This document shows, in pieces, positions 1 through 46,900 of a stretch of DNA of 64,000 bases. Numbering within the stretch: the stretch's first letter is position 1; each line of letters opens with the position of its first letter. This DNA is from Eledone cirrhosa (Eukaryota): contig OZ024743.1 of the NCBI GenBank assembly GCA_964016885.1, forward strand, positions 134,726,001 through 134,790,000, given 5' to 3'. The position numbers and the translations under genes were made by a program. Under the pieces are notes generated by a model that saw only the letters and a program-made list of their open reading frames with translations, did no database searches and was not told the origin of the DNA.

Positions 1-327
1 TGTTTGGTGCTTGGTGTTTGGTGCTTGGTGCTTGGTGATTGGTGTTTGCTGCTTGGTGCTTGGTGTTTGGTGTTTGGTGCTTGGAGCTTGGTGTTTGGTG
101 TTTGGTGCTTGGTGCTTGGTGTTTGGTGCTTGGTGCTTGGTGTTGTTGTTTGGTGCTTGGTACTTGGTGCTTGGTGTTTGGTGTTTGGTGTTTGCTGTTT
201 GCTGTTTGGTGTTTGCTGTTTGGTGTTTGCTGTTTGGTGTTTGGTGTTTGGTGTTTGGTGTTTGGTGCTTGGTGCTTTGTTTTTGCTCTTTGGTGCTTTG
301 TGCTTGGTGTTTGGTGTTTGGTGCTTA

Positions 328-21610: not shown

Positions 21611-23439
21611 TTTGGTGCTTGGTGCTTGCTGCTTGGTGCTTGGTGTTTGGTGTTTGGTGCTTGGTGCTTGGTGTTTGGTGTTTGTTGCTTGGTTCTGGGT
21701 GCTTGGTGCTTGGTGCTTGGTGTTTGGTGCGTGGGGCTTGGTGATTGGTGTTTGGTGCTTGGTGCTTGGTGCTTGGTGCTTGGTGTTTGGTGCTTGGTGT
21801 TTGGTGCTTAGTGCTTGGTGCTAGGAGTTTGGTGTTTGGTGTTTGGCGCTTGGTGCTTGGTGTTTGGTGATTGGTGCTTGGTGTTTGGTGTTTGGTGCTT
21901 GGCGCTTGGTGTTTGGTGTTTGGTGCTTGGCGTTTGCTGTTTGGCGTTTGGGGTTTGGCATTTGCTGTTTGAAGTATGGGGTTTGGCATTTGCTTTTTGG
22001 CGTTTGCTGTTTGGTGTTTGGTGTTTGCTGTTTGCTGTTTGGTGTTTGCTGTTTGGTGTTTGTGGTTTGGTGTTTGGTGCTTGGTGCTTGGTGTTTGGTG
22101 TTTGGTGCTTGGTGCTTGGTGTTTGGTGTTTGGTGCCTGGTGCTTGGTGCTTGGTGTTTGGTGCTTGGTGCTTGGTGCTTGGTGCTTGATGCTTGGTGTT
22201 TGGTGCTTGGTGTTTGCTGTTTGGTGCTTGATGCTTGGTGTTTGGGGCTTGGTGCCTGGTGCTTGGTGCTTGGTGTTTGGTGCTTGGTGCTTGGTGCTTG
22301 GTGTTTGATGCTTGGTGCTTGGTGCTTGGTGTTTAGTGCTTGGTGCTTGGTTTTTGGTGTTTTGGTGCTTGGTGCTTGGTGTTTGGTGCTTGCTGTTTGG
22401 TGCTTGGTGTTTGGTGCTTGGTGCTTGGTGCTTGGTGTTTGGTGCTTCGTGTTTGGTGCTTGGTGCTTGGTGTTTGGTGCTTGGTGCTTGGTGCTTGGTG
22501 TTTGGTGCTTGGTGCTTGGTGCTTGGTGTTTGGTGTTTGGTGCTTGGTGCTTGGTGTTTTGTGTTTGGTGCTTGGTGTTTGGTGCTTGGAGCTTGGTGCT
22601 TGGTTTTTGGTGCTTGGTGCTTGGTGCTTGGTGCTTGGTGTCTGGTGCTTGGTGCTTGGTGTTTGGTGTTTGGTGCTTGGTGCTTGGTGTTTGGTGCTTG
22701 GGATTTGGTGCTTGGTGCTTGGTGTTTGGTGTTTGGAGTTTGGTGCTTGGTGCTTGGTGTTTGGTGTTTAGTGATTGGTGCTTAATTCTTGGTGTTTGGT
22801 GCTTGGGGCTTGGTGATTGGTGTTTGGTGCTTGGTGCTTGGTATTTGGTGCTTGGTCTTTGGTGCTTGGTGTTTGGTGCTTGGTGCTTGGTGCTTGGTGC
22901 TTGGTGTTTGTTGCTTGGTGCTTGGCGTTTGGTGCTTGGTGCTTCATGCTTGGTGTTTGGTGCATGGTGCTTGGTGCTTGGTGTTTGGTGTTTAGTGCTT
23001 GCTGCTTACTGATTGGTGCTTGTTGCTTGGTGCTTGGTGTTTGGTGCTTGGTGTTTGGTGTTTGGTGTTTGCTGTTTGCTGTTTGCTGTTTGGTGTTTGC
23101 TGTTTGGTGTTTGGTGCTTGGTGCTTGGCGCTTGGTGCTTGGTGTTTGGTGTTTGGCGCTTGGTGCTTGGTGTTTTGTGCTTGGTGCTTGGTGCTTGGTG
23201 TTTGGTGTTTGGTGTTTGTGTTTGCTGTTTGGCGTTTGCTGTTTGGTGTTTGCTGTTTGGTGTTTGCTGGTTGGTGTTTGGTGTTTGCTGTTTGCTGTTT
23301 GGTGTTTGCTGTTTGGTGTTTGATATTTGGTGTTTGGTGTTTGCTGTTTGGTGTTTGGTGTTTAGTGTTTGCTGTTTGGTGTTTGGTGTTTGGTGTTTGG
23401 TGCTTGGGGCTTGGTGTTTGCTCTTTGGTGCTTGGTGAT

Positions 23440-25000
23440 TGGTTTTTGGTGTTTGGTGCTTCGTGCTTGGTGCATGGTGTTTGGTGCTTGGTGCTTGGTG
23501 CTTGGTGCTTGGTGTTTGGTGTTTGGTGCTTGGTGCTTGGTGTTTGGTCTTTGGTGCTTGGTGCTTGGTTCTGGGTGCTTGGTGCTTGGTGCTTGGTGTT
23601 TGGTGCTTGGGGCTTGGTGATTGGTGTTTGGTGTTTGCTGTTTGGTGTTTGCTGTTTGGTGTTTGTGGTTTGGTGTTTGGTGTTTGCTGGTTGGTGTTTG
23701 GTGTTTGGTGTTTGCTGTTTGGTGTTTGCTGTTTGGTGTTTGGTGTTTGGTGTTTGGTGCTTGGTGCTTGGTGTTTGGTGTTTGGTGCTTGGTGTTTGCT
23801 GTTTGGTGCTTGATGATTGGTGTTTGGTGCTTGGTGCTTGGTGCTTGGTGCTTGATGCTTGGTGCTTGGTGCTTGGTGTTTAGTGCTTGGTGCTTGGTTT
23901 TTGGTGTTTTGGTGCTTGGTTCTTGGTTTTTGGTGTTTTGGTGATTGGTTCTTGGTGTTTGGTGCTTCGTGCTTGGTGCATGGTGTTTGGTGCTTGGTGC
24001 TTGGTGCTTGGTGTTTGGTGTTTGGTGCTTGGTGCTTGGTGTTTGGTCTTTGGTGCTTGGTGCTTGGTTCTGGGTGCTTGGTGCTTGGTGCTTGGTGTTT
24101 GGTGCTTGGGGCTTGGTGATTGGTGTTTGGTGTTTGCTGTTTGGTGTTTGCTGTTTGGTGTTTGTGGTTTGGTGTTTGGTGTTTGGTGTTTGCTGGTTGG
24201 TGTTTGGTGTTTGGTGTTTGCTGTTTGGTGTTTGCTGTTTGGTGCTTGGTGTTTGGTGTTTGGTGCTTGGTGCTTGGTGTTTGGTGTTTGGTGCTTGGTG
24301 CTTGGTGTTTGGTGTTTGGTGCTTGGTGTTTGCTGTTTGGTGCTTGATGATTGGTGTTTGGTGCTTGGTGCTTGGTGCTTGGTGCTTGATGCTTGCTGTT
24401 TGGTGCTTGGTGTTTGGTGTTTGGTGCTTGGTGCTTGGTGTTTGGTGTTTTGGTGCTTGGTTCTTGGTTTTTGGTGTTTTGGTGCTTGGTTCTTGGTGTT
24501 TGGTGCTTCGTGCTTGGTGCATGGTGTTTGGTGCTTGGTGCTTGGTGCTTGGTGCTAGGTGTTTGGTGTTTGGTGCTTGGTGCTTGGTGTTTGGTCTTTG
24601 GTGCTTGGTGCTTGGTTCTGGGTGCTTGGTGCTTGGTGCTTGGTGTTTGGTGCTTGGGGCTTGGTGATTGGTGTTTGGTGTTTGCTGTTTGGTGTTTGCT
24701 GTTTGGTGTTTGTGGTTTGGTGTTTGGTGTTTGGTGTTTGCTGGTTGGTGTTTGGTGTTTGGTGTTTGCTGTTTGGTGTTTGCTGTTTGGTGCTTGGTGT
24801 TTGGTGTTTGGTGCTTGGTGCTTGGTGTTTGGTGTTTGGTGCTTGGTGCTTGGTGTTTGGTGCTTGGTGTTTGCTGTTTGGTGCCTGGTGCTTGGTGCTT
24901 CGTGTTTGGTGCTTGGTGCTTGGTGCTTGGTGCTTGATGCTTGGTGCTTGGTGCTTGGTGTTTAGTGCTTGGTGCTTGGTTTTTGGTGTTTTGGTGCTTG
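23440..25000 (+). repeat. Three-copy ~500-550 bp local repeat
   Basis: GGTCTTTGG...GTTCTGGGTGC...GGGGCTTGGTGATTGG...TTTGTGGTTTGG recurs three times. ORF starts at 23621, 24120 and 24668 give offsets of 499 and 548. Confidence 0.75.
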
Positions 25001-28000
25001 GTTCTTGGTGTTTGGTGCTTGGGGCTTGGTGATTGGTGTTTAGGGCTTGGTGCTTGGTATTTGGTGCTTGGTCTTTGGTGCTTGGTGTCTGGTGCTTGGT
25101 GCTTGGTGCTTGGTGTTTGGTGCTTGGTGCTTGGCGTTTGGTGCTTGGTGCTTCATGCTTGGTGTTTGGTGCTTGGTGCTTGGTGTTTGGTGTTTAGTGC
25201 TTGGTGCTTGCTGATTGGCGCTTGTTGCTTGGTGCTTGGTGTTTGGTGCTTGGTGTTTGGTGTTTGCTGTTTGCTGTTTGCTGTTTGCTGTTTGGTGTTT
25301 GCTGTTTGGTGTTTGCTGTTTGGTGTTTGCTGTTTGGTGTTTGCTGTTTGGTGTTTGGTGTTTGGTGTTTGCTGTTTGGTGTTTGGTGTTTGGTGTTTGG
25401 TGTTTGCTGTTTGGTGTTTCGTGTTTGGTGTTTGGTGATTGGTGTTTGCTGTTTGGTGTTTGGTATTTGGTGTTTGGTGCTTGGTGCTTGGTGCTTGGTG
25501 CTTGGTGTTTGGTGTTTGGCGCTTGGTGCTTGGTGTTTTGTGCTTGGTGCTTGGTGCTTGGTGTTTGGTGTTTGGTGTTTGTGTTTGCTGTTTGGCGTTT
25601 GCTGTTTGGTGTTTGCTGTTTGGTGTTTGCTGGTTGGTGTTTGGTGTTTGCTGTTTGCTGTTTGGTGTTTGCTGTTTGGTGTTTGATATTTGGTGTTTGG
25701 TGTTTGCTGTTTGGAGTTTGTTGTTTAGTGTTTGCTGTTTGGTGTTTGGTGCTTGGTGTTTGGTACTTGGGGCTTGGTGATTGGTTTTTGGTGTTTGGTG
25801 CTTCGTGCTTGGTGTTTGGTGTCTGGTGCTTGGTGCTTGGTGCTTGGTGCTTGGTGTTTGGTGTTTGTTGCTTGGGGCTTGGTGATTGGTGTTTGGTGCT
25901 TGGTGCTTTGTGCTTGGTGCTTGGTGTTTGGTGCTTGGTGTTTGGTGCTTGGTGCTTGGTGCTAGGAGTTTGGTGTTTGGTGTTTGGCGCTTGGTGCTTG
26001 GTGTTTGGTGATTGCTGCTTGGTGTTTGGTGTTTGGTGCTTGGTGCTTGGTGTTTGGTGTTTGGTGCTTGGCACTTGGTGTTTGGTGTTTGGTGCTTGGC
26101 GTTTGCTGTTTGGCGTTTGGGGTTTGGCATTTCCTGTTTGGCGTATGGGGTTTGGCATTTGCTTTTTGGCGTTTGCTGTTTGGTGTTTGGTGCTTGGTGG
26201 TTGGTGTTTTGTACTTGGTGTTTGGTGTTTGGGGTTTGGTGCTTGGTGCTAGGTGTTTGGTGTTTGGTGCTTGGCGTTTGCTGTTTGGCATTTGGGGTTT
26301 GGCATTTGCTGTTTGGCGTTTGGGGTTTGGCGTTTGCTTTTTGGCGTTTGCTGTTTGGTGTTTGGTGTTTGGTCTTTGCTGTTTGGTGTTTGCTGTTTGG
26401 TGTTTGTGGTTTGGTGTTTGGTGTTTGGTGTTTGCTGGTTGGTGTTTGGTGTTTGGTGTTTGCTGTTTGGTGTTTGCTGTTTGGTCCTTGGTGTTTGGTG
26501 CTTGGTGCCTGCTTCTTGGTGCTTGGTGTTTGGTGCTTGGTGCTTGGTGCTTGGTGCTTGATGCTTGGTGCTTGGTGCTTGGTGTTTAGTGCTTGGTGCT
26601 TGGTTTTTGGTGTTTTGGTGCTTGGTGCTTGGTGTTTGGTGCTTGGTGTTTGGTGCTTGGTGTTTGGTGTTTGGTGCGTGGTACTTGGTGCTTGGTGTTT
26701 GGTGTTTGGTGCTTGGTGCTTGGTGCTTGGTATCTGGTGCTTGGTGCTTGGTGCTTGGTGTTTGGTGCTTGTTGTTTGGTGCTTGGTTTTTGGTGTCTGG
26801 TGCTTGGTGCTTGGTGTTTGGTGCCTGGTGCTTGGTGCTTGGTGTTTGGTGCTTGGTGCTTGCTGCTTGGTGTTTGGTGTTTAGTGCTTGGTGCTTGGTG
26901 TTTGGTGTTTGGTGCTTGGTGCTTGGTGTTTGGTGTTTGGTGCTTGGTGCTTGGTGTTTGGTGTTTGGTGTTTGGTGTTTTCTGTTTGCTGTTTGGTGAT
27001 TCGTGATTGGTGTTTGATGTTTGGTGTTTGGTGTTGGGTGTTTGGTGCTTGGGGCTTGGTGTTTGCTCTTTGGTGCTTGGTGCTTGGTGTTTGGTGTTTG
27101 GTGCTTGGTGCTTGGTGTTTGGTGTTTGGTGCTTGGCGCTTGGTGTTTGGTGTTTGGTGCTTGGCGTTTGCTGTTTGGCGTTTGGGGCTTGGCGTTTGCT
27201 TTTTGGCGTTTGCTATTTGGTGTTTGGTGTTTGGTGTTTGCTGTTTGGTGTTTGGTGTTTGGTGTTTGCTGGTTGGTGTTTGGTGCTTGGTGCTTGGTGT
27301 TTGGTGCTTGGTGCTTGGTGCTTGGTGCTTGGTGTTTGGTGCTTGGTGTTTGGTGCTTGGTGTTTGGTGCTTGGTGCTTGGTGCTTGGTGTTTGGTGTTT
27401 AGTGCTTGGTGCTTGGTGTTTGGTGCTTGGTGCTTGGTGTTTGGTGTTTGGTGCTTGGTGCTTGGTGTTTGGTGTTTGGTGCTTGGTGCTTGGTGTTTGG
27501 TGTTTGGTGCTTGGTGCTTACTGTTTGGCGTTTGGTGTTTGGCGTTTGCTGTTTGGCGTTTGGTGTTTGGCGTTTGATGTTTGGCGTTTGCTGTTTGGTG
27601 TTTGGTGTTTGGTGTTTGCTGGTTGGTGTTTGGTGTTTGCTGTTTGGTGTTTGCTGTTTGGTGTTTGGTGTTTGCTGTTTGGTGTTTGGTGTTTGGAGTT
27701 TGCTGTTTGCTGTTTGGTGTTTGGTGTTTGGTGTTTGGTGTTTGGTGCTTGGTGCTTGGTGCTTGGTGCTTGGTATTTGGTGCTTGGTGCTTGGTGTTTG
27801 GTGTTTGGCGCTTGGTGCTTGGTGTTTCAGGCTTGGTGCTTGGTGTTTGGTGTTTGGTGCTTGGTGTTTGGTCCTTGGAGCTTGGTGCTTGGTTTTTGGT
27901 GCTTGGTATTTGGTGCTTGGTGCTTTGTGTCTGGTGCTTGGTGTTTGGTGCTTGGTGTTTGGGGCTTGGTGCTTGGTGCTTGGTGTTTGGTGCTTGGTGC

Positions 28001-31000
28001 TTGGTGCTTGGTGCTAGGTGCTAGGTGTTTGGTGTTTGGTGCTTGGTGCTTAGTGTTTGGTCTTTGGTGCTTGGTGCTTGGTGTTTGGTGATTGGTGCAT
28101 GGTGCTTGGTGCTTGGTGTTTGGTGTTTGGTGCTTGGTGCTTGGTGTTTGGTGCTTGCGATTTGGTGCTTGGTGCTTGGTGTTTGGTGTTTGGAGTTTGG
28201 TACTTGGTGCTTGGTGCTTGGTGTTTGGTGTTTAGTGATTGGTGCTGGGTTCTTGGTGTTTGGTGCTTGGTGCTTGGTGATTGGTGTTTGGTGCTTGGTG
28301 CTTGGTATTTGCTGCTTGGTCTTTGGTGCTTGGTGTTTGGTGCATGGTGCTTGGTGCTTGGTGTTTGGTGCTTGGTGCTTGGCGTTTGGTGCTTGGTGCT
28401 TGATGCTTGGTGTTTGGTCCATGGTGCTTGGTGCTTGGTGTTTGGTGTTTAGTGCTTGGTGCTTGGTGATTGGTGCTTGTTGCTTGGTGCTTGGTGTTTG
28501 GTGCTTGGTGTTTGCTGGTTGGTGTTTGGTGTTTGCTGTTTGCTGTTTTGTGTTTGCTGTTTGGTGTTTGGTGTTTGCTGTTTGGTGTTTGGTGTTTGGA
28601 GTTTGCTGTTTGCTGTTTAGTGTTTGGTGTTTGGTGTTTGCTGGTTGGTGTTTGGTGTTTGGTGTTTGCTGTTTGGTGTTTGCTGTTTGGTGCTTGGTGT
28701 TTGGTGTTTGGTGCTTGGTGCTTGGTGTTTGGTGTTTGGTGCTTGGTGCTTGGTGTTTGGTGTTTGGTGCTTGGTGTTTGCTGTTTGGTGCTTGATGATT
28801 GGTGTTTGGTGCTTGGTGCTTGGTGCTTGGTGCTTGATGCTTGCTGTTTGGTGCTTGGTGTTTGGTGTTTGGTGCTTGGTGCTTGGTGTTTGGTGTTTTG
28901 GTGCTTGGTTCTTGGTTTTTGGTGTTTTGGTGCTTGGTTCTTGGTGTTTGGTGCTTCGTGCTTGGTGCATGGTGTTTGGTGCTTGGTGCTTGGTGCTTGG
29001 TGCTAGGTGTTTGGTGTTTGGTGCTTGGTGCTTGGTGTTTGGTCTTTGGTGCTTGGTGCTTGGTTCTGGGTGCTTGGTGCTTGGTGCTTGGTGTTTGGTG
29101 CTTGGGGCTTGGTGATTGGTGTTTGGTGTTTGCTGTTTGGTGTTTGCTGTTTGGTGTTTGTGGTTTGGTGTTTGGTGTTTGGTGTTTGCTGGTTGGTGTT
29201 TGGTGTTTGGTGTTTGCTGTTTGGTGTTTGCTGTTTGGTGCTTGGTGTTTGGTGTTTGGTGCTTGGTGCTTGGTGTTTGGTGTTTGGTGCTTGGTGCTTG
29301 GTGTTTGGTGCTTGGTGTTTGCTGTTTGGTGCCTGGTGCTTGGTGCTTCGTGTTTGGTGCTTGGTGCTTGGTGCTTGGTGCTTGATGCTTGGTGCTTGGT
29401 GCTTGGTGTTTAGTGCTTGGTGCTTGGTTTTTGGTGTTTTGGTGCTTGGTTCTTGGTGTTTGGTGCTTGGGGCTTGGTGATTGGTGTTTAGGGCTTGGTG
29501 CTTGGTATTTGGTGCTTGGTCTTTGGTGCTTGGTGTCTGGTGCTTGGTGCTTGGTGCTTGGTGTTTGGTGCTTGGTGCTTGGCGTTTGGTGCTTGGTGCT
29601 TCATGCTTGGTGTTTGGTGCTTGGTGCTTGGTGTTTGGTGTTTAGTGCTTGGTGCTTGCTGATTGGCGCTTGTTGCTTGGTGCTTGGTGTTTGGTGCTTG
29701 GTGTTTGGTGTTTGCTGTTTGCTGTTTGCTGTTTGCTGTTTGGTGTTTGCTGTTTGGTGTTTGCTGTTTGGTGTTTGCTGTTTGGTGTTTGCTGTTTGGT
29801 GTTTGGTGTTTGGTGTTTGCTGTTTGGTGTTTGGTGTTTGGTGTTTGGTGTTTGCTGTTTGGTGTTTCGTGTTTGGTGTTTGGTGATTGGTGTTTGCTGT
29901 TTGGTGTTTGGTGTTTGGTGTTTGGTGCTTGGTGCTTGGTGCTTGGTGCTTGGTGTTTGGTGTTTGGCGCTTGGTGCTTGGTGTTTTGTGCTTGGTGCTT
30001 GGTGCTTGGTGTTTGGTGTTTGGTGTTTGTGTTTGCTGTTTGGCGTTTGCTGTTTGGTGTTTGCTGTTTGGTGTTTGCTGGTTGGTGTTTGGTGTTTGCT
30101 GTTTGCTGTTTGGTGTTTGCTGTTTGGTGTTTGATATTTGGTGTTTGGTGTTTGCTGTTTGGAGTTTGTTGTTTAGTGTTTGCTGTTTGGTGTTTGGTGC
30201 TTGGTGTTTGGTACTTGGGGCTTGGTGATTGGTTTTTGGTGTTTGGTGCTTCGTGCTTGGTGTTTGGTGTCTGGTGCTTGGTGCTTGGTGCTTGGTGCTT
30301 GGTGTTTGGTGTTTGTTGCTTGGGGCTTGGTGATTGGTGTTTGGTGCTTGGTGCTTTGTGCTTGGTGCTTGGTGTTTTGTGCTTGGTGTTTGGTGCTTGG
30401 TGCTTGGTGCTAGGAGTTTGGTGTTTGGTGTTTGGCGCTTGGTGCTTGGTGTTTGGTGATTGCTGCTTGGTGTTTGGTGTTTGGTGCTTGGTGCTTGGTG
30501 TTTGGTGTTTGGTGCTTGGCACTTGGTGTTTGGTGTTTGGTGCTTGGCGTTTGCTGTTTGGCGTTTGGGGTTTGGCATTTCCTGTTTGGCGTATGGGGTT
30601 TGGCATTTGCTTTTTGGCGTTTGCTGTTTGGTGTTTGGTGCTTGGTGGTTGGTGTTTTGTACTTGGTGTTTGGTGTTTGGGGTTTGGTGCTTGGTGCTAG
30701 GTGTTTGGTGTTTGGTGCTTGGCGTTTGCTGTTTGGCATTTGGGGTTTGGCATTTGCTGTTTGGCGTTTGGGGTTTGGCGTTTGCTTTTTGGCGTTTGCT
30801 GTTTGGTGTTTGGTGTTTGGTCTTTGCTGTTTGGTGTTTGCTGTTTGGTGTTTGTGGTTTGGTGTTTGGTGTTTGGTGTTTGCTGGTTGGTGTTTGGTGT
30901 TTGGTGTTTGCTGTTTGGTGTTTGCTGTTTGGTCCTTGGTGTTTGGTGCTTGGTGCCTGCTTCTTGGTGCTTGGTGTTTGGTGCTTGGTGCTTGGTGCTT

Positions 31001-33060
31001 GGTGCTTGATGCTTGGTGCTTGGTGCTTGGTGTTTAGTGCTTGGTGCTTGGTTTTTGGTGTTTTGGTGCTTGGTGCTTGGTGTTTGGTGCTTGGTGTTTG
31101 GTGCTTGGTGTTTGGTGTTTGGTGCGTGGTACTTGGTGCTTGGTGTTTGGTGTTTGGTGCTTGGTGCTTGGTGCTTGGTATCTGGTGCTTGGTACTTGGT
31201 GCTTGGTGTTTGGTGCTTGTTGTTTGGTGCTTGGTTTTTGGTGTCTGGTGCTTGGTGCTTGGTGTTTGGTGCCTGGTGCTTGGTGCTTGGTGTTTGGTGC
31301 TTGGTGCTTGCTGCTTGGTGTTTGGTGTTTAGTGCTTGGTGCTTGGTGTTTGGTGTTTGGTGCTTGGTGCTTGGTGTTTGGTGTTTGGTGCTTGGTGCTT
31401 GGTGTTTGGTGTTTGGTGTTTTCTGTTTGCTGTTTGGTGATTCGTGATTGGTGTTTGATGTTTGGTGTTTGGTGTTGGGTGTTTGGTGCTTGGGGCTTGG
31501 TGTTTGCTCTTTGGTGCTTGGTGCTTGGTGTTTGGTGTTTGGTGCTTGGTGCTTGGTGTTTGGTGTTTGGTGCTTGGCGCTTGGTGTTTGGTGTTTGGTG
31601 CTTGGCGTTTGCTGTTTGGCGTTTGGGGCTTGGCGTTTGCTTTTTGGCGTTTGCTATTTGGTGTTTGGTGTTTGGTGTTTGCTGTTTGGTGTTTGGTGTT
31701 TGGTGTTTGCTGGTTGGTGTTTGGTGCTTGGTGCTTGGTGTTTGGTGCTTGGTGCTTGGTGCTTGGTGCTTGGTGTTTGGTGCTTGGTGTTTGGTGCTTG
31801 GTGTTTGGTGCTTGGTGCTTGGTGCTTGGTGTTTGGTGTTTAGTGCTTGGTGCTTGGTGTTTGGTGCTTGGTGCTCGGTGTTTGGTGTTTGGTGCTTGGT
31901 GCTTGGTGTTTGGTGTTTGGTGCTTGGTGCTTGGTGTTTGGTGTTTGGTGCTTGGTGCTTACTGTTTGGCGTTTGGTGTTTGGCGTTTGCTGTTTGGCGT
32001 TTGGTGTTTGGCGTTTGATGTTTGGCGTTTGCTGTTTGGTGTTTGGTGTTTGGTGTTTGCTGGTTGGTGTTTGGTGTTTGCTGTTTGGTGTTTGCTGTTT
32101 GGTGTTTGGTGTTTGCTGTTTGGTGTTTGGTGTTTGGAGTTTGCTGTTTGCTGTTTGGTGTTTGGTGTTTGGTGTTTGGTGTTTGGTGCTTGGTGCTTGG
32201 TGCTTGGTGCTTGGTATTTGGTGCTTGGTGCTTGGTGTTTGGTGTTTGGCGCTTGGTGCTTGGTGTTTCAGGCTTGGTGCTTGGTGTTTGGTGTTTGGTG
32301 CTTGGTGTTTGGTCCTTGGAGCTTGGTGCTTGGTTTTTGGTGCTTGGTATTTGGTGCTTGGTGCTTCGTGTCTGGTGCTTGGTGTTTGGTGCTTGGTGTT
32401 TGGGGCTTGGTGCTTGGTGCTTGGTGTTTGGTGCTTGGTGCTTGGTGCTTGGTGCTAGGTGCTTGGTGTTTGGTGTTTGGTGCTTGGTGCTTAGTGTTTG
32501 GTCTTTGGTGCTTGGTGCTTGGTGTTTGGTGATTGGTGCATGGTGCTTGGTGCTTGGTGTTTGGTGTTTGGTGCTTGGTGCTTGGTGTTTGGTGCTTGCG
32601 ATTTGGTGCTTGGTGCTTGGTGTTTGGTGTTTGGAGTTTGGTACTTGGTGCTTGGTGCTTGGTGTTTGGTGTTTAGTGATTGGTGCTGGGTTCTTGGTGT
32701 TTGGTGCTTGGTGCTTGGTGATTGGTGTTTGGTGCTTGGTGCTTGGTATTTGCTGCTTGGTCTTTGGTGCTTGGTGTTTGGTGCATGGTGCTTGGTGCTT
32801 GGTGTTTGGTGCTTGGTGCTTGGCGTTTGGTGCTTGGTGCTTGATGCTTGGTGTTTGGTCCATGGTGCTTGGTGCTTGGTGTTTGGTGTTTAGTGCTTGG
32901 TGCTTGGTGATTGGTGCTTGTTGCTTGGTGCTTGGTGTTTGGTGCTTGGTGTTTGCTGGTTGGTGTTTGGTGTTTGCTGTTTGCTGTTTTGTGTTTGCTG
33001 TTTGGTGTTTGGTGTTTGCTGTTTGGTGTTTGGTTTTTGGAGTTTGTGTTTGCTGTTTAG
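24170..33060 (+). repeat. 4448-bp tandem segmental duplication (two copies, a few SNPs and one 7-bp indel)
   Basis: ORF pairs 24393/28841, 25040/29488, 25984/30432 and 26593/31041 are offset by 4448. Pairs 27007/31448, 27406/31847 and 28057/32498 are offset by 4441. Confidence 0.88.
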
Positions 33061-35365
33061 TGTTTGGTGTTTGGTGTTTGGTGCTTGGTGCTTGGTGCTT
33101 GGTGCTTGGTATTTGGTGCTTGGTGCTTGGTGTTTGGTGTTTGGCGCTTGGTGCTTGGTGTTTCATGCTTGGTGCTTGGTGTTTGGTGTTTGGTGCTTGG
33201 TGTTTGGTCCTTGGAGCTTGGTGCTTGGTTTTTGGTGCTTGGTATTTGGTGCTTGGTGCTTCGTGTCTGGTGCTTGGTGCTTGGTATTTGGTGTTTGGTG
33301 CTTGGTGCTTGGTGTTTGGTGTTTGGTGCTTGGTGCTTGGTGTTTGGTGTTTGGTGTTTGGTGTTTGCTGTTTGCTGTTTGGTGATTCGTGATTGGTGTT
33401 TGATGTTTGGTGTTTGGTGTTGGGTGTTTGGTGCTTGGGGCTTGGTGTTTGCTCTTTGGTGCTAGGTGCTTGGTGTTTGGTGTTTGGTGCTTGGTGCTTG
33501 GTGTTTGGTGTTTGGTGCTTGGCGCTTGGTGTTTGGTGTTTGGTGCTTGGCGTTTGCTGTTTGGCGTTTGGGGTTTGGCGTTTGCTTTTTGGCGTTTGCT
33601 ATTTGGTGTTTGGTGTTTTGTGTTTGCTGTTTGGTGTTTGGTGTTTGGTGTTTGCTGGTTCGTGTTTAGTGCTTGGTGCTTGGTGTTTGGTGCTTGGTGC
33701 TTGGTGCTTGGTGTTTGGGGCTTGGTGCTTGGTGCTTGGTGTTTGGTGTTTAGTGCTTGGTGCTTGGTGTTTGGTGTTTGGTGCTTGGTGCTTGGTGTTT
33801 GGTGTTTGGTGCTTGGTGCTTGGTGTTTGGTGTTTGGTGCTTGGTGCTTACTGTTTGGCGTTTGGTGTTTGGCGTTTGCTGTTTGGCGTTTGCTGTTTGG
33901 TGTTTGGTGTTTGGTGTTTGCTGGTTGGTGTTTGGTGTTTGCTGTTTGGTGTTTGCTGTTTGGTGTTTGGTGTTTGCTGTTTGGTGTTTGGTGTTTGGAG
34001 TTTGCTGTTTGCTGTTTTGTGTTTGGTGTTTGGTGTTTGGTGTTTGGTGCTTGGTGCTTGGTGCTTGGTGCTTGGTATTTGGTGCTTGGTGCTTGGTGTT
34101 TGGTGTTTGGCGCTTGGTGCTTGGTGTTTCATGCTTGGTGCTTGGTGTTTGGTGTTTGGTGCTTGGTGTTTGGTCCTTGGAGCTTGGTGCTTGGTTTTTG
34201 GTGCTTGGTATTTGGTGCTTGGTGCTTCGTGTCTGGTGCTTGGTGTTTGGTGCTTGGTGTTTGGGGCTTGGTGCTTGGTGCTTGGTGTTTGGTGCTTGGT
34301 GCTTGGTGCTTGGTGCTGGGTGCTTGGTGTTTGGTGTTTGGTGCTTGGTGCTTAGTGTTTGGTGTTTGGTGCTTGGTGCTTGGTGTTTGGTGATTGGTGC
34401 ATGGTGCTTGGTGCTTGGTGTTTGGTGTTTGGTGCTTGGTGCTTGGTGTTTGGTGCTTGCGATTTGGTGCTTGGTGCTTGGTGTTTGGTGTTTGGAGTTT
34501 GGTACTTGGTGCTTGGTGCTTGGTGCTTGGTGTTTGGTGTTTAGTGATTGGTGCTGGGTTCTTGGTGTTTGGTGCTTGGTGCTTGGTGATTGGTGTTTGG
34601 TGCTTGGTGCTTGGTATTTGGTGCTTGGTCTTTGGTGCTTGGTGTTTGGTGCATGGTGCTTGGTGCTTGGTGTTTGGTGCTTGGTGCTTGGCGTTTGGTG
34701 CTTGGTGCTTGATGCTTGGTGTTTGGTCCATGGTGCTTGGTGCTTGGTGTTTGGTGTTTAGTGCTTGGTGCTTGGTGATTGGTGCTTGTTGCTTGGTGCT
34801 TGGTGTTTGGTGCTTGGTGTTTGCTGGTTGGTGTTTGGTGTTTGCTGTTTGCTGTTTGGTGTTTGCTGTTTGGTGTTTGGTGTTTGCTGTTTGGTGTTTG
34901 GTGTTTGGAGTTTGCTGTTTGCTGTTTGGTGTTTGGTGTTTGGTGTTTGGTGCTTGGTGCTTGGTGCTTGGTGCTTGGTATTTGGTGCTTGGTGCTTGGT
35001 GTTTGGTGTTTGGCGCTTGGTGCTTGGTGTTTCATGCTTGGTGCTTGGTGTTTGGTGTTTGGTGCTTGGTGTTTGGTCCTTGGAGCTTGGTGCTTGGTTT
35101 TTGGTGCTTGGTATTTGGTGCTTGGTGCTTCGTGTCTGGTGCTTGGTGTTTGGTGCTTGGAGTTTGGTGCTTGGTGCTTGGTGCTTGGTGTTTGGTGCTT
35201 GGTGCTTGGTGCTTGGTGCTTGGTATTTGGTGTTTGGTGCTTGGTGCTTGGTGTTTGGTGTTTGGTGCTTGGTGCTTGGTGTTTGGTGTTTGGTGTTTGG
35301 TGTTTGCTGTTTGCTGTTTGGTGATTCGTGATTGGTGTTTGATGTTTGGTGTTTGGTGTTGGGTG
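31438..35365 (+). repeat. ~1.94 kb higher-order repeat next to the junction
   Basis: The marker GTGATTCGTGATTGG occurs at ~26996, ~31437, ~33382 and ~35321. ORF starts 31448, 33393 and 35332 give offsets of 1945 and 1939. The last copy is cut by the junction. Confidence 0.75.
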
Positions 35366-35400
35366 CAAACACCAAACACGAAACAGCAAACACCATACAG
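35341..35400. other. Orientation-switch junction between the two satellite arms
   Basis: ...GATGTTTGGTGTTTGGTGTTGGGT[G]CAAACACCAAACACGAAACAGC... The left flank matches the left-arm motif GTGTTGGGTG|TTTGG (~27031, ~31473, ~33417). The right flank matches the right-arm motif AAACA|GCAAACACCAAACACGAAACAGCAAACACCATACAG (~38971, ~42052). Only G35365 is shared and no bases are inserted. Confidence 0.95.
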
Positions 35401-37789
35401 CAAACACTAAACACCAAAAAGCAGACACCAGACAGCAAAACCAAACACCAAACACCAAACTCCAAACAGCAAACACCAAACACCAAGCACCAAACACGAA
35501 GCACCAAGCACCAAATACCTAACACCAAGCACCAAGCACCAAGCACCAAGTACCAAACACCAAGAACTAAGAACCAAACACCAAACACCAAGCACCAAGT
35601 ACAAACACCAAGCACCAAGCACCAAGCACCAAACACCAAGCACCAAGCACCAAACACAAAACACCAAGCACCAAGCATCAAACACCAAGCAGCAAACACC
35701 AAACACCAAGCACCAATCACCAAACACAAAGCACCCAGCACCAAACACCAAGCACCAAGCACCAAGCACCAAACACCAAACTCCAAGCACCAAGCCCCAA
35801 ACACCAAACACCAAGCACCAAGCACCAAGCACCAGGCACCAAACACCAAGCACCAAGCACCAAACACCAAGCACCAAGCACCAAACACCAAATGCCAAAC
35901 ACCAAACACCAAGAACCAAGAACCAAACACCAAGCACCAAGCACCAAGTACAAACATCAAGCACCAAGCACCAAGCACCAAACACCAAGCATCAAGCACC
36001 AAGCAGCAAACACCAAACACCAAGCACCAAGCACCAAACACAAAGCACCCACCACCTAACACCAAGGACCAAGCACCAAGCACCAAGCACCAAAAACCAA
36101 ACACGAAACACAAAACACCAAGCACCAAGCACCAAACACCAAACACCAAGCACCAAGCACCAAGCACCAAACTCCAAACACCAAGCACCAAGCACCAAGC
36201 ACCAGGCACCAAACACCAAGCACCAAGCACCAAACACCAAACACCAAACACCAAACAGCAAACAACATACAGCAAACACCAAACACCAAAAAGCAAACAC
36301 CAAACACCAAACAGCAAACACCAAACAACAAACACCAAACAACAAACACCAAACAGCAAACAGCAAACACCAAGCACCAAGCACCAAACACCAAGCACCA
36401 AGCACCAAACACCAAGCACCAAGCACCAAGCACCAAACACCAAGCACCAAAGACCAAGCACCAAGCACCAAACACCAAGCACCCAGCACCAAACACCAAG
36501 CACCCAGCACCAAACACCAAGCACCAAACACCAACCACTCAGCACCAAGCACCAAACACCAAGCACCAAGCACCAAACACCAAACACCCAGCACCAAACA
36601 CCAAGCACCAAGCACCAAACATCAAGCACCAAGCAACAAGCACCAAACACCAAACACCAAGCACCAAACACCAAACACCAAGCACCAAGCACCAAACACC
36701 AAACACCAAGCACCAAACACCAAACACCAAGCACCAGACACCAAGCACCAAACACCAAACACCAAACACCAAGCACCAAGCACCAAACACCAAACACCAA
36801 GCACCAAGCACCAAACACCAAACACCAAAGACCAAACACCAAACAGCAAACACCAAACACCAAACAGCAAACACCAAACACCAAACACCAAACACCAAAC
36901 AGCAAACACCAAACACCAAGCACCAAACACCAAGCACCAAGCACCAAATACCTAACACCAAGCACCAAGCACCAAGCACCAACCACCAAGCACCAAACAC
37001 CAAGCACCAAACACCAAACATCAAGCACCAAGCACCAAGCACCAAGTACCAAACACCAAGAACCAAGAACCAAACACCAAGCACCAAGCACCAAGTAGAA
37101 ACACCAAGCACCAAGCACCAAGCACCAAACACCAAGCACCAAGCACCAAATACAAAACACCAAGCATCAAACACCAAGCAGCAAACACCAAACACCAAGC
37201 ACCAATCACCAAACACAAAGCACCCAGCACCAAACACCAAGGACCAAGCACCAAGCACCAAGCACCAAACACCAAACTCCAAGCACCAAGCACCAAACAC
37301 CAAACACCAAGCACCAAGCACCAAGCACCAGGCACCAAACACCAAGCACCAAGCACCAAACACCAAGCACCAAACACCAAACGCAAAACACCAAACACCA
37401 AGAACCAAGAACCAAACACCAAGCACCAAGCACCAAGTACAAACACCAAGCACCAAGCACCAAGCACCAAACACCAAGCACCAAGCACCAAACACCAAGG
37501 ACCATGCACCAAGCACCAAGCACCAAAAACCAAACACCAAGTATCAAGCACCAAGCACCAGGCACCAAACACCAAGCACCAAGCACCAAACACCAAGCAC
37601 CAAACACCAAACACCAAACACCAAACACCAAACACCAAACACCAAACAGCAAACAACATACAGCAAACACCAAACACCAAATAGCAAACACCAAACAGCA
37701 AACAGCAAGCACCAAGCACCAAACACCAAACACCAAACACCAAACACCAAGCACCAAGCACCAAACACCAAGCACCAAACACCAAGCAC

Positions 37790-38340
37790 CTAGCACCTAG
37801 CACCAAACACTAAGCACCAAGCACCAAACACCAAGCACCAAGCACCAAACACCAAGCACCAAGCACCAAGCACCAAACACCAAGCACCCAGGACCATAAA
37901 CCAAGCACCCAGCACCAAACACCAAGCACCAAACACCAACCACTCAGCACCAAGCACCAAACACCAAGCACCAAGCACCAAACACCAAACACCAAACACC
38001 AAGCACCAAGCACCAAGCACCAAACACCAAACACCAAGCACCAAGCACCAAACACCAAGCACCAAACACCAAACACCAAACACCAAGCACCAAGCACCAA
38101 ACACCAAGCACCAAACACCAAGCACCTAGCACCAAACACTAAGCACCAAGCACCAAACACCAAGCACCAAGCACCAAACACCAAGCACCAAGCACCAAGC
38201 ACCAAACACCAAGCACCCAGGACCAAAAACCAAGCACCCAGCACCAAACACCAAGCACCAAACACCAACCACTCAGCACCAAGCACCAAACACCAAGCAC
38301 CAAGCACCAAACACCAAACACCAAACACCAAGCACCAAGC
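37790..38340 (-). repeat. 329-bp (47-monomer) tandem doublet recurring in right-arm units
   Basis: The module CCTAGCACCAAACACTAAG...CCCAGGACC...CCACTCAGC is repeated at +329: ORF boundaries 37810/38139, 40765/41094, 47963/48292 and 61261/61590. Confidence 0.8.
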
Positions 38341-41300
38341 ACCAAGCACCAAACACCAAACACCAAACACCAAACACCAAGCACCAGACACCAAGCACCA
38401 AACACCAAACACCAAACACCAAGCACCAAACACCAAGCACCAAGCACCGAATACCAAACACCAAGCACCGAGCACCAAACACCAAGCACCAAAGACCAAA
38501 CACGAAACAGCAAACACCAAACACCATACAGCAAACACTAAACACCAAAAAGCAGACACCAAACAGCAAACACCAAACACCAAACACCAAACACCAAACA
38601 GCAAACACCAAACACCAAGCACCAAGTACCAAACACCAAGAACCAAGAACCAAACACCAAGCACCAAGCACCAAGTTCAAACACCAAGCACCAAGCACCA
38701 AGCACCAAACACCAAGCACCAAACACCAAACAAAAAACACCAAGCACCAAGCATCAAACACCAAGCAGCAAACACCAAACACCAAGCACCAATCACCAAA
38801 CACCAAACACCAAGCACCAAACACCAAACACCAAGCACCAGACACCAAGCACCAAACACTAAACACCAAACACCAAGCACCAAGCACCAAACACCAAACA
38901 CCAAGCAGCAAGCACCAAACACCAAACACCAAGCACCAAACACCAAGCACCAAAGACCAAACACCAAACAGCAAACACCAAACACGAAACAGCAAACACC
39001 ATACAGCAAACACTAAACACCAAAAAGCAGACACCAGACAGCAAAACCAAACACCAAACACCAAACTCCAAACAGCAAACACCAAACACCAAGCACCAAA
39101 CACGAAGCACCAAGCACCAAATACCTAACACCAAGCACCAAGCACCAAGCACCAAGTACCAAACACCAAGAACCAAGAACCAAACACCAAACACCAAGCA
39201 CCAAGTACAAACACCAAGCACCAAGCACCAAGCACCAAACACCAAGCACCAAGCACCAAACACAAAACACCAAGCACCAAGCATCAAACACCAAGCAGCA
39301 AACACCAAACACCAAGCACCAATCACCAAACACAAAGCACCCAGCACCAAACACCAAGGACCAAGCACGAAGCACCAAGCACCAAACACCAAACTCCAAA
39401 CACCAAGCACCAAGCACCAAGCACCAGGCACCAAACACCAAGCACCAAGCACCAAACACCAAGCACCAAGCACCAAACACCAAATGCCAAGCACCAAACA
39501 CCAAGAACCAAGAACCAAACACCAAGCACTAAGCACCAAGTACAAACACCAAGCACCAAGCACCAAGCACCAAACACCAAGCATCAAGCACCAAGCAGCA
39601 AACACCAAACACCAAGCACCAAGCACCAAACACAAAGCACCCAGCACCTAACACCAAGGACCAAGCACCAAGCACCAAGCACCAAAAACCAAACACGAAA
39701 CACAAAACACCAAGCACCAAGCACCAAACACCAAGCACCAAGCACCAAGCACCAAACACCAAACACCAAGCACCAAACACCAAGCACCAAAGACCAAACA
39801 CCAAACAGCAAACACCAAACACCAAACAGCAAACACCAAACAGCAAACACCAAACACCAAACAGCAAACACCAAACACCAAGCACCAAACACCAAGCACC
39901 AAGCACCAAATACCTAACACCAAGCACCAAGCACCAAGCACCAACCACCAAGCACCAAACACCAAGCACCAAACACCAAACATCAAGCACCAAGCACCAA
40001 GCACCAAGTACCAAACACCAAGAACCAAGAACCAAACACCAAGCACCAAGCACCAAGTAGAAACACCAAGCACCAAGCACCAAGCAGCAAACACCAAACA
40101 CCAAGCACCAATCACCAAACACAAAGCACCCTGCACCAAACACCAAGGACCAAGCACCAAGCACCAAGCACCAAACACCAAACACCAAGCACCAAACACC
40201 AAACGCAAAACACCAAACACCAAGAACCAAGAACCAAACACCAAGCACCAAGCACCAAGTACAAACACCAAGCACCAAGCACCAAACACCAAACACCAAG
40301 CACCAAGCACCAAACACAAAACACCAAGCACCAAGCACCAAGCATCAAACACCAAGCAGCAAACACCAAACACCAAGCACCAAGCACCAAGCACCAAACA
40401 CAAAGCACCCAGCACCAAACACCAAGGACCAAGCACCAAGCACCAAGCACCAAAAACCAAACACCAAGCATCAAGCACCAAGCACCAGGCACCAAACACC
40501 AAGCACCAAGCACCAAACACCAAGCACCAAACACCAAACACCAAACACCAAACACCAAACACCAAACACCAAACAGCAAACAACATACAGCAAACACCAA
40601 ACACCAAATAGCAAACACCAAACACCAAACAGCAAACACCAAACAACAAACACCAAACAGCAAACAGCAAACACCAAGCACCAAGCACCAAACATCAAAC
40701 ACCAAACACCAAGCACCAAGCACCAAACACCAAGCACCAAACACCAAGCACCTAGCACCAAACACTAAGCACCAAGCACCAAACACCAAGCACCAAGCAC
40801 CAAACACCAAGCACCAAGCACCAAGCACCAAACACCAAGCACCCAGGACCAAAAACCAAGCACCCAGCACCAAACACCAAGCACCAAACACCAACCACTC
40901 AGCACCAAGCACCAAACACCAAGCACCAAGCACCAAACACCAAACACCAAACACCAAGCACCAAGCACCAAGCACCAAACACCAAACACCAAGCACCAAG
41001 CACCAAACACCAAGCACCAAACACCAAACACCAAACACCAAGCACCAAGCACCAAACACCAAGCACCAAACACCAAGCACCTAGCACCAAACACTAAGCA
41101 CCAAGCACCAAACACCAAGCACCAAGCACCAAACACCAAGCACCAAGCACCAAGCACCAAACACCAAGCACCCAGGACCAAAAACCAAGCACCCAGCACC
41201 AAACACCAAGCACCAAACACCAACCACTCAGCACCAAGCACCAAACACCAAGCACCAAGCACCAAACACCAAACACCAAACACCAAGCACCAAGCACCAA

Positions 41301-43979
41301 GCAACAAACACCAAACACCAAACACCAAGCACCAAACACCAAACACCAAGCACCAGACACCAAGCACCAAACACCAAACACCAAACACCAAGCACCAAGC
41401 ACCAAACACCAAACACCAAACACCAAGCACCAAACACCAAACACCAAGCACCAAACACCAAGCACCAGACACCAAGCACCAAACACCAAACACCAAACAC
41501 CAAGCACCAAACACCAAGCAGCAAGCACCGAATACCAAACACCAAGCACCGAGCACCAAACACCAAGCACCAAAGACCAAACACCAAACAGCAAACACCA
41601 AACACCATACAGCAAACACTAAACACCAAAAAGCAGACACCAAACAGCAAACACCAAACACCAAACACCAAACACCAAACAGCAAACACCAAACACCAAG
41701 CACCAAGTACCAAACACCAAGAACCAAGAACCAAACACCAAGCACCAAGCACCAAGTACAAACACCAAGCACCAAGAAACAAGCACCAAACACCAAGCAC
41801 CAAGCACCAAACACAAAACACCAAGCACCAAGCATCAAACACCAAGCAGCAAACACCAAACACCAAGCACCAATCACCAAACACCAAACACCAAGCACCA
41901 AACACCAAACACCAAGCACCAGACACCAAGCACCAAACACTAAACACCAAACACCAAGCACCAAGCACCAAACACCAAACACCAAGCAGCAAGCACCAAA
42001 CACCAAACACCAAGCACCAAACACCAAGCACCAAAGACCAAACACCAAACAGCAAACACCAAACACGAAACAGCAAACACCATACAGCAAACACTAAACA
42101 CCAAAAAGCAGACACCAGACAGCAAAACCAAACACCAAACACCAAACTCCAAACAGCAAACACCAAACACCAAGCACCAAACACGAAGCACCAAGCACCA
42201 AATACCTAACACCAAGCACCAAGCACCAAGCACCAAGTACCAAACACCAAGAACCAAGAACCAAACACCAAACACCAAGCACCAAGTACAAACACCAAGC
42301 ACCAAGCACCAAGCACCAAACACCAAGCACCAAGCACCAAACACAAAACACCAAGCACCAAGCATCAACACCAAGCAGCAAACACCAAACACCAAGCACC
42401 AATCACCAAACACAAAGCACCCAGCACCAAACACCAAGGACCAAGCACCAAGCACCAAGCACCAAACACCAAACTCCAAACACCAAGCACCAAGCACCAA
42501 GCACCAGGCACCAAACACCAAGCACCAAGCACCAAACACCAAGCACCAAGCACCAAACACCAAATGCCAAACACCAAACACCAAGAACCAAGAACCAAAC
42601 ACCAAGCACCAAGCACCAAGTACAAACACCAAGCACCAAGCACCAAGCACCAAACACCAAGCATCAAGCACCAAGCAGCAAACACCAAACACCAAGCACC
42701 AAGCACCAAACACAAAGCACCCAGCACCTAACACCAAGGACCAAGCACCAAGCACCAAGCACCAAAAACCAAACACGAAACACAAAACACCAAGCACCAA
42801 GCACCAAACACCAAGCACCAAGCACCAAGCACCAAACACCAAACACCAAGCACCAAGCACCAAGCACCAGGCACCAAACACCAAATACCAAACAGCAAAC
42901 AACATACAGCAAACACCAAACACCAAAAAGCAAACACCAAACACCAAACAGCAAACACCAAACAACAAACACCAAACAACAAACACCAAACAGCAAACAG
43001 CAAACACCAAGCACCAAGCACCAAACACCAAGCACCAAGCACCAAACACCAAGCACCAAGCACCAAGCACCAAACACCAAGCACCAAAGACCAAGCACCA
43101 AGCACCAAACACCAAGCACCCAGCACCAAACACCAAGCACCCAGCACCAAACACCAAGCACCAAACACCAACCACTCAGCACCAAGCACCAAACACCAAG
43201 CACCAAGCACCAAACACCAAACACCAAACACCAAGCACCAAGCACCAAGCATCAAACACCAAGCATATAACACCAAACACCAAACACCAAGCACCAAGCA
43301 CCAAAAACCAAATAACAAGCACCAAGCACCCAGCACCAAACACCAAGCACCAAGCACCAAACATCAAGCACCAAGCAACAAGCACCAAACACCAAACACC
43401 AAGCACCAAACACCAAACACCAAGCACCAAGCACCAAACACCAAACACCAAGCACCAAACACCAAGCACCAGACACCAAGCACCAAACACCAAACACCAA
43501 ACACCAGGCACCAAGCACCAAACACAAAGCACCCAGCACCTAACACCAAGGACCAAGCACCAAGCACCAAGCACCAAAAACCAAACACGAAACACAAAAC
43601 ACCAAGCACCAAGCACCAAACACCAAGCACCAAGCACCAAGCACCAAACACCAGACACCAAGCACCAAACACCAAGCACCAAAGACCAAACACCAAACAG
43701 CAAACACCAAACACCAAACAGCAAACACCAAACAGCAAACACCAAACACCAAACAGCAAACACCAAACACCAAGCACCAAACACCAAGCACCAAGCACCA
43801 AATACCTAACACCAAGCACCAAGCACCAAGCACCAACCACCAAGCACCAAACACCAAGCACCAAACACCAAACATCAAGCACCAAGCACCAAGCACCAAG
43901 TACCAAACACCAAGAACCAAGAACCAAACACCAAGCACCAAGCACCAAGTAGAAACACCAAGCACCAAGCACCAAGCAC

Positions 43980-46900
43980 CAAACACCAAGCACCAAGCAC
44001 CAAACACCAAGCACCAAGCACCAAGCACCAAACACCAAGCACCCAGGACCAAAAACCAAGCACCCAGCACCAAACACCAAGCACCAAACACCAACCACTC
44101 AGCACCAAGCACCAAACACCAAGCACCAAGCACCAAACACCAAACACCAAACACCAAGCACCAAGCACCAAGCACCAAACACCAAACACCAAGCACCAAG
44201 CACCAAACACCAAGCACCAAACACCAAACACCAAACACCAAGCACCAAGCACCAAACACCAAGCACCAAACACCAAGCACCTAGCACCAAACACTAAGCA
44301 CCAAGCACCAAACACCAAGCACCAAGCACCAAACACCAAGCACCAAGCACCAAGCACCAAACACCAAGCACCCAGGACCAAAAACCAAGCACCCAGCACC
44401 AAACACCAAGCACCAAACACCAACCACTCAGCACCAAGCACCAAACACCAAGCACCAAGCACCAAACACCAAACACCAAACACCAAGCACCAAGCACCAA
44501 GCAACAAACACCAAACACCAAACACCAAGCACCAAACACCAAACACCAAGCACCAGACACCAAGCACCAAACACCAAACACCAAACACCAAGCACCAAGC
44601 ACCAAACACCAAACACCAAACACCAAGCACCAAACACCAAACACCAAGCACCAAACACCAAGCACCAGACACCAAGCACCAAGCACCAAACACCAAACAC
44701 CAAACACCAAGCACCAAACACCAAGCAGCAAGCACCGAATACCAAACACCAAGCACCGAGCACCAAACACCAAGCACCAAAGACCAAACACCAAACAGCA
44801 AACACCAAACACCATACAGCAAACACTAAACACCAAAAAGCAGACACCAAACAGCAAACACCAAACACCAAACACCAAACACCAAACAGCAAACACCAAA
44901 CACCAAGCACCAAGTACCAAACACCAAGAACCAAGAACCAAACACCAAGCACCAAGCACCAAGTACAAACACCAAGCACCAAGAAACAAGCACCAAACAC
45001 CAAGCACCAAGCACCAAACACAAAACACCAAGCACCAAGCATCAAACACCAAGCAGCAAACACCAAACACCAAGCACCAATCACCAAACACCAAACACCA
45101 AGCACCAAACACCAAACACCAAGCACCAGACACCAAGCACCAAACACTAAACACCAAACACCAAGCACCAAGCACCAAACACCAAACACCAAGCAGCAAG
45201 CACCAAACACCAAACACCAAGCACCAAACACCAAGCACCAAAGACCAAACACCAAACAGCAAACACCAAACACGAAACAGCAAACACCATACAGCAAACA
45301 CTAAACACCAAAAAGCAGACACCAGACAGCAAAACCAAACACCAAACACCAAACTCCAAACAGCAAACACCAAACACCAAGCACCAAACACGAAGCACCA
45401 AGCACCAAATACCTAACACCAAGCACCAAGCACCAAGCACCAAGTACCAAACACCAAGAACCAAGAACCAAACACCAAACACCAAGCACCAAGTACAAAC
45501 ACCAAGCACCAAGCACCAAGCACCAAACACCAAGCACCAAGCACCAAACACAAAACACCAAGCACCAAGCATCAAACACCAAGCAGCAAACACCAAACAC
45601 CAAGCACCAATCACCAAACACAAAGCACCCAGCACCAAACACCAAGGACCAAGCACCAAGCACCAAGCACCAAACACCAAACTCCAAACACCAAGCACCA
45701 AGCACCAAGCACCAGGCACCAAACACCAAGCACCAAGCACCAAACACCAAGCACCAAGCACCAAACACCAAATGCCAAACACCAAACACCAAGAACCAAG
45801 AACCAAACACCAAGCACCAAGCACCAAGTACAAACACCAAGCACCAAGCACCAAGCACCAAACACCAAGCATCAAGCACCAAGCAGCAAACACCAAACAC
45901 CAAGCACCAAGCACCAAACACAAAGCACCCAGCACCTAACACCAAGGACCAAGCACCAAGCACCAAGCACCAAAAACCAAACACGAAACACAAAACACCA
46001 AGCACCAAGCACCAAACACCAAGCACCAAGCACCAAGCACCAAACACCAAACACCAAGCACCAAGCACCAAGCACCAGGCACCAAACACCAAATACCAAA
46101 CAGCAAACAACATACAGCAAACACCAAACACCAAAAAGCAAACACCAAACACCAAACAGCAAACACCAAACAACAAACACCAAACAACAAACACCAAACA
46201 GCAAACAGCAAACACCAAGCACCAAGCACCAAACACCAAGCACCAAGCACCAAACACCAAGCACCAAGCACCAAGCACCAAACACCAAGCACCAAAGACC
46301 AAGCACCAAGCACCAAACACCAAGCACCCAGCACCAAACACCAAGCACCCAGCACCAAACACCAAGCACCAAACACCAACCACTCAGCACCAAGCACCAA
46401 CCACCAAGCACCAAGCACCAAACACCAAACACCAAACACCAAGCACCAAGCACCAAGCATCAAACACCAAGCATATAACACCAAACACCAAACACCAAGC
46501 ACCAAGCACCAAAAACCAAATAACAAGCACCAAGCACCCAGCACCAAACACCAAGCACCAAGCACCAAACATCAAGCACCAAGCAACAAGCACCAAACAC
46601 CAAACACCAAGCACCAAACACCAAACACCAAGCACCATGCACCAAACACCAAACACCAAGCACCAAACACCAAGCACCAGACACCAAGCACCAAACACCA
46701 AACACCAAACACCAGGCACCAAGCACCAAACACAAAGCACCCAGCACCTAACACCAAGGACCAAGCACCAAGCACCAAGCACCAAAAACCAAACACGAAA
46801 CACAAAACACCAAGCACCAAGCACCAAACACCAAGCACCAAGCACCAAGCACCAAACACCAAACACCAAGCACCAAACACCAAGCACCAAAGACCAAACA

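Follow-up and report, generated by a model that had tools for sequence, protein, structure and literature searches.

A ten-copy, spacer-free strand switch in a 14.6-Mb satellite array of Eledone cirrhosa, probably an old inversion end multiplied by duplication

The stretch of DNA analysed here (64,000 nt, hereafter the window) covers positions 134,726,001-134,790,000 of C4, a 378.8-Mb contig (OZ024743.1) in the 2.996-Gb assembly of the octopod Eledone cirrhosa (GCA_964016885.1), and consists throughout of a single satellite, (TTGGTGY)n. This satellite is G-rich on the + strand up to position 35365 and C-rich beyond it, and the junction between the two arms is the feature under study. TTGGTG occurs ∼100 times per kb over 1-35365 and CACCAA ∼100 times per kb from 35365 to 64000, with no mixing, and the GC skew reverses at the junction from +0.64 to -0.65. 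TTGGTGC and TTGGTGT, in near-equal numbers, make up 3442 of the 5054 units of the left arm (∼68%) and 2952 of the 4099 units of the right arm (∼72%); the remaining units are recurrent variants that differ between the arms. Nested periods of 3.2-8.2 kb are present. The longest exact match between the arms was 83 bp (against 5433 bp inside the left arm and 1294 bp inside the right one), which rules out a fold-back of one sequence: the arms are not mirror images.

The original prediction had described at least 35 kb of G-rich repeat meeting at least 28 kb of C-rich repeat with one shared base and no filler, each flank being a truncated copy of a motif of its own arm. The description was borne out: the arms measured 35.4 kb of (TTGGTGY)n and 28.6 kb of its reverse complement, and intact copies were found of the 34 bases on the left (three, in the left arm, all continuing with GTTT) and of the 48 bases on the right (seven, in the right arm, preceded by ACAG in six cases and by ATAG in one). 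Since the intact copies depart from the junction immediately after G35365, exactly one base is common to both arms and nothing is inserted. When both arms were searched, the left motif was missing from the right arm and the right motif from the left. The features of the window are as follows, the junction being of the type designated class A below.

1..35365, + strand: left arm, (TTGGTGY)n, in a block that extends left to a class B C-to-G switch at C4:134.526 Mb, 235 kb off (strand between the two switches taken from the switch map)
35365..64000, - strand: right arm, the same satellite in another variant subfamily, extending to a class H C-to-G switch at C4:134.981 Mb, 219 kb off
35351..35380, no strand assigned: class A junction, a spacer-free G-to-C switch with shared base G35365, present in 10 copies on C4 of which this is the sole + strand copy
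35331..35364, + strand: truncated left-arm motif; intact copies begin at 27006, 31447 and 33392
35366..35413, - strand: truncated right-arm motif; intact copies begin at 38972, 42053, 45260, 49258, 51264, 54289 and 59419
10750..21610, + strand: left-arm tandem duplication of 5.4 kb, exact (5433-bp match, offset 5428)

When the 30 bases spanning the junction were used in a genome-wide pattern search, nine exact matches were obtained, all on C4 (130.21-141.03 Mb); a tenth copy, at C4:134.33 Mb, carried one mismatch. The window copy is on the + strand and the other nine are on the opposite strand, with 0.4-1.9 Mb between successive copies. Over 700 bp the ten copies differed pairwise by 0-15 substitutions (mean 6.8, ∼1%), mostly private to one copy, and the sole pair with no substitutions was still separated by a 35-bp indel. 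The ungapped identity of the other copies to the window copy collapsed within 0.1-2 kb.

These figures bear on whether the junction could be an assembly artefact, i.e. a misjoin, a fold-back read or the false duplication of one locus. In favour of an artefact, the locus is pure satellite, and the three sequencing runs that contain 0.70-0.76 of the window's words represent one sample, possibly the source of the assembly itself (shares of 0.13-0.25 in runs from other organisms and marine metagenomes were counted as no evidence). However, the arms do not mirror one another, no N was present in 82 satellite-rich loci, and ten copies with private substitutions, and with flanks diverging over such short distances, are not expected from a misjoin. 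An artefact was judged the least probable of all the explanations considered here. The order and number of the class A copies could be partly wrong in the assembly, and the 5.4-kb tandem duplication is either a very recent local amplification or a local assembly duplication.

The array containing the window is interstitial, with edges at C4:128,822,8xx (C-strand) and C4:143,422,3xx (G-strand), 14.60 Mb apart; every sample taken between them was pure satellite. As the array starts C-rich and finishes G-rich, its G-strands face outward at both edges, contrary to the arrangement left by a telomere fusion. Pattern searches located 27 spacer-free switches of at least seven classes (∼2 per Mb), 13 of them G-to-C (class A ×10, and D, E and F) and 14 C-to-G (class B ×10, class H ×3, and C). 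The map agreed with a 63-base pure-unit motif, all 92 genome-wide matches of which fell inside the array, 91 on the strand predicted by the switches; clusters of this motif recurred 0.1-0.2 Mb past most class B copies. The lone exception exposed an extra inverted block extending from ∼139.64 to beyond 139.90 Mb. Nine of the ten class A copies had a class B copy at a distance of 105-235 kb, the block between them consisting of the left-arm subfamily. Around the window, at 134.53-134.98 Mb, the order is B-A-H, the mirror image of H-A-B at 130.02-130.44 Mb, with three (H), four (A) and one (B) differences per 700 bases.

Several further features of the array were observed. The class B junction (e.g. 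C4:130,435,60x) is a perfect palindrome centre containing a HindIII site, retained in ten copies and flanked on both sides by >100 kb of inverted satellite. Both junction types fold into long hairpins, as expected of any inverted satellite and hence of no value as evidence, and the left arm contained no match to a canonical G-quadruplex motif. Past the last class B copy, at C4:142.89-143.3 Mb, the satellite changes from the left-arm to the right-arm subfamily without any strand switch being found; this may be the un-inverted or re-inverted state of the class A boundary. Three tRNA-Arg(TCG) genes at 1.47-kb spacing, plus decayed copies, adjoin the left edge (C4:128.819-128.822 Mb). Open reading frames (ORFs) in the flanks yielded transposon domains only (150 of 690 ORFs scanned, drawn from 40 flanking windows of 10 kb each and ten samples of 3 kb, with no genome-wide control).

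The explanation preferred for these observations, with a probability of about 0.88, is that the window junction is one of ten near-identical spacer-free switches in a ∼14.6-Mb interstitial TTGGTGY array, and represents an old intra-array inversion end that was multiplied by megabase-scale duplications. A break-and-join event, by end joining or microhomology template switch, would first flip 0.1-0.25 Mb of the array. A unit of 0.4-1.9 Mb bearing both inversion ends would then be copied by unequal exchange or break-induced replication, with classes C, D, E, F and H added by later inversions. The window copy itself probably belongs to a duplicated segment of 455 kb or more in inverted orientation, because its B-A-H triplet mirrors H-A-B with only 1, 4 and 3 differences per 700 bp. 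With a 21-base anchor, the junction overlaps of the seven classes were 2, 4, 4, 4, 3, 2 and 3 bases with no filler, while random joins scored in the same way gave a mean near 1.5 (P about 0.001); with a 28-base anchor the class A overlap was 1. These joins are consistent with near-blunt end joining or with microhomology template switching, either pathway being possible. An inversion or translocation breakpoint closed by near-blunt joining was among the options first proposed; an inversion within the satellite agrees with the evidence, but not as the site of a single event, since the junction is a ten-copy repeat. No function needs to be invoked for the junction, which was likely carried along neutrally as the array expanded.

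The original prediction had also offered a fusion of two chromosome ends capped by TTGGTGY, with the repeat as a non-canonical telomeric or subtelomeric sequence; in its amplified form, class A would be the multiplied scar of that fusion. The G-strands do run inward at the junction, the two arms belong to different subfamilies, and C4 is itself a fusion product, as described below. To identify the sequence that caps chromosomes, 27 contig ends were fetched. TTAGGG, proposed as the octopus telomere repeat (Adachi 2014, as cited in PMC6160780), was present with its G-strand outward at six of them (the ends of C5 and C6 and the starts of C7, C9, C10 and C13), and (TTAGGG)10 gave 35,072 overlapping matches genome-wide. 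In contrast, the TTGGTGY satellite was found at none of the 27, including with its G-strand outward, and all 92 matches of the 63-base motif were interstitial. These 27 ends were the only ones inspected, and C1-C4 do not extend to a telomere at any of their eight ends, which leaves a fusion some latitude; the start of C2 is a distinct C/A-rich repeat with one heptamer in common with the satellite. The 40 flanking 10-kb windows contained no (TTAGGG)2.

Outside C4, the satellite was seen only as small blocks on C2 (250.86-250.93 and ∼251.14-251.153 Mb); this holds among the matches listed for the direct satellite search, which reach to within C4, later contigs being covered by the 63-base motif and switch searches. 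This narrow distribution, together with the net polarity of the array, opposite to that of a telomere fusion, and the equal abundance of switches of the other polarity (14 versus 13), counts against a terminal repeat. The C2 blocks are embedded in a different short GA-rich satellite, the second stops at an assembly gap, and 35% of the diagnostic 42-mers are in common with C4 samples.

Synteny was examined with G-protein-coupled receptor (GPCR) markers, found by family search and then submitted to homologue searches against Octopus proteins. Four of the seven C4 markers submitted (at 59.9, 103.8, 176.6 and 341 Mb) had Octopus orthologues, and the GPCR matches, at 87-92% identity, place the genome among the octopods; those at 44.2, 274.6 and 327.8 Mb had none in these searches, nor had the two C2 markers submitted. 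Family searches for markers closer to the array returned none between 104 and 176 Mb. The markers at 103.8 Mb (pyrokinin-1 receptor-like) and 176.6 Mb, on either side of the array, both lie on the 84,198,933-bp contig of O. vulgaris (CAI9731935.1 and CAI9731780.1) and both on the 65,066,837-bp contig of O. bimaculoides. As a control, the approach detected a break on C1, where the marker at 269.0 Mb and the one at 198.1 Mb (the latter with 75% identity and less certain orthology) fell on different O. bimaculoides chromosomes. The expectation that the two flanks derive from separate ancestral chromosomes was thus not upheld, on two markers and at coarse resolution: the flanking markers map to one chromosome in two Octopus species. 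With this, and with TTAGGG at six and the satellite at none of the 27 ends, both an end-to-end fusion at this junction and a telomeric role for the repeat were set aside, the former as highly improbable.

The C4 markers at 59.9 and 341 Mb lie on other Octopus chromosomes (of 174/168 Mb and 135.6 Mb). With 59.9, 103.8/176.6 and 341 Mb assigned to different Octopus chromosomes, C4 is a composite of at least three, the array sitting between two markers of one of them. Its composite nature bears on a further possibility, that the whole array marks a centric (Robertsonian-type) join or an internal block boundary, its net C-to-G polarity recording the join, in which case junction A would remain an inversion end of secondary origin. 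Satellite polarity is said, from work by Garagna in 2001, to flip at mouse Robertsonian fusion points, and the array does begin on one strand and finish on the other; both its ends also share sequence of the window's right-arm subfamily (0.29-0.30 at 128.95-129.05 Mb and 0.20 at 143.3 Mb). However, an inversion with a single breakpoint in the array yields the same net flip, and the 103.8- and 176.6-Mb markers are on one contig in O. vulgaris and in O. bimaculoides alike. A centric join was considered very unlikely, if the least so of the alternatives.

A number of points weigh against the multiplied inversion end proposed here, or restrict its detail. The overlap test depends on the anchor: at 28 bases class F scored -5, and for classes C, E, F and H long anchors lacked an intact copy in the sequence examined. 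Classes A and B do not correspond exactly as reciprocal products would: the intact continuations of the A arms were unmatched in the B arms, and the sharing of 35-mers failed to pair the outer with the inner arms of the two. That A and B are the two ends of one inversion is something we infer from their co-occurrence alone, and turnover after the event could explain their mismatch. Even this pairing has exceptions: the tenth class A copy is paired with class C, at 256 kb, and the class B copy at 142.89 Mb has no A partner. At least two further switches (at C4:139.60-139.64 Mb and beyond 139.90 Mb) escaped all patterns, and may hold filler, degenerate units or an assembly gap. Copy number and order were taken from the assembly sequence rather than from reads; about 0.4 Mb of the 14.6-Mb array was inspected, its continuity following from the edges and samples; and synteny across it depends on two markers, 25 Mb to the left and 33 Mb to the right of the edges, on a fusion-product chromosome.

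Four giant chromosomes, C1-C4 (443, 416, 379 and 379 Mb), stand out from the others seen (≤137 Mb); C4 joins at least three Octopus chromosomes and C1 appears to join at least two. At C1:217.85-218.10+ Mb, mid-chromosome, lies a stretch of ≥250 kb of degenerate interstitial TTAGGG satellite (with the variants TTAGCTG, TTAGTG and TTAATG), in one orientation where sampled. It falls inside the 71-Mb interval between the 198.1- and 269.0-Mb markers, assigned to different Octopus chromosomes, and is more plausible as a genuine fusion scar than the C4 junction. This C1 block almost lacks TTGGTG (2 in 23 kb) despite its TTAGTG and TTAGCTG variants, and comparison with it gives no backing to an origin of the C4 satellite from a telomeric repeat. 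TTAGGG-to-CCCTAA junctions were also found at 16 sites on C1-C6. The two inspected were not fusions but the centres of a short inverted-repeat element. The element is dispersed, resembles a miniature inverted-repeat transposable element (MITE) and has a few TTAGGG units facing CCCTAA units at its centre, which mimics a telomere fusion in pattern searches.

At the human 2q13 site, two ancestral chromosomes were joined once, through the telomere repeats of the species itself. The C4 junction resembles it in that a G-rich strand runs into its own complement, but differs in that its repeat is not the telomere repeat, it exists in ten copies, and both sides map to one ancestral chromosome. Closer parallels come from human satellites. 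Altemose et al. (bioRxiv 10.1101/2021.07.12.452052) describe >200 breakpoints of inversions in the HSat3B5 (chr9) and beta-satellite arrays, as well as a 1.7-Mb inversion in the active alpha-satellite array of chromosome 1. The C4 array shares with HSat3B5 and beta-satellite a multi-megabase, short-unit organization with nested kilobase periodicities and many inversion breakpoints of both polarities; unlike them, it has an unrelated 7-bp unit, a mollusc host and ∼2 switches per Mb, and 23 of its 27 located switches are copies of three junctions, a direct sign of copying. Like the chromosome 1 inversion, the one proposed for C4 would be large, with its two ends in a single array and one switch per polarity; the human inversion is single, polymorphic and in a proven centromere, whereas the C4 ends are multiplied about tenfold in a putative centromere only. 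A second preprint reports switch numbers that scale with the length of the array and interprets the switches as by-products of expansion (bioRxiv 10.64898/2026.07.22.740206). The C4 locus belongs with the intra-array switches of the HSat3/beta-satellite type, now in a mollusc, and the tests above speak against both a 2q13-type fusion and a non-canonical telomere. No description of a TTGGTGY satellite was found in the open-access literature searched.

It is conceivable, and put forward tentatively rather than as an expectation, that this giant fused octopod chromosome uses the 14.6-Mb 7-mer array, which is specific to it, as its working centromere, and that the array grew by repeated megabase duplication of a unit with two spacer-free inverted junctions. 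Octopod C-bands are mostly centromeric, with interstitial bands also present (PMC6160780); the satellite is not common to the other chromosomes, bar the small C2 blocks. If this idea were correct, the ∼23 junction copies would serve as built-in barcodes from which the growth of a cephalopod centromere could be ordered at sequence level, and it would follow that perfect palindrome centres whose arms span hundreds of kb persist and spread in such an array.

The analysis removes the tempting claim of a non-canonical telomere and a fusion scar, and shows that local 'fusion geometry' is a poor guide in a satellite unless copy number and the polarity of the entire array are known. It leaves a chromosome-specific satellite of 14.6 Mb, apparently undescribed until now, in an octopod with four giant chromosomes formed by fusion; most of the switches in this satellite are demonstrably copies of a few old junctions. 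This backs, in a distantly related lineage, the idea that switches are passengers whose number grows as arrays expand, and makes the array a candidate centromere and a marker for fluorescence in situ hybridization in a group with little centromere sequence data.

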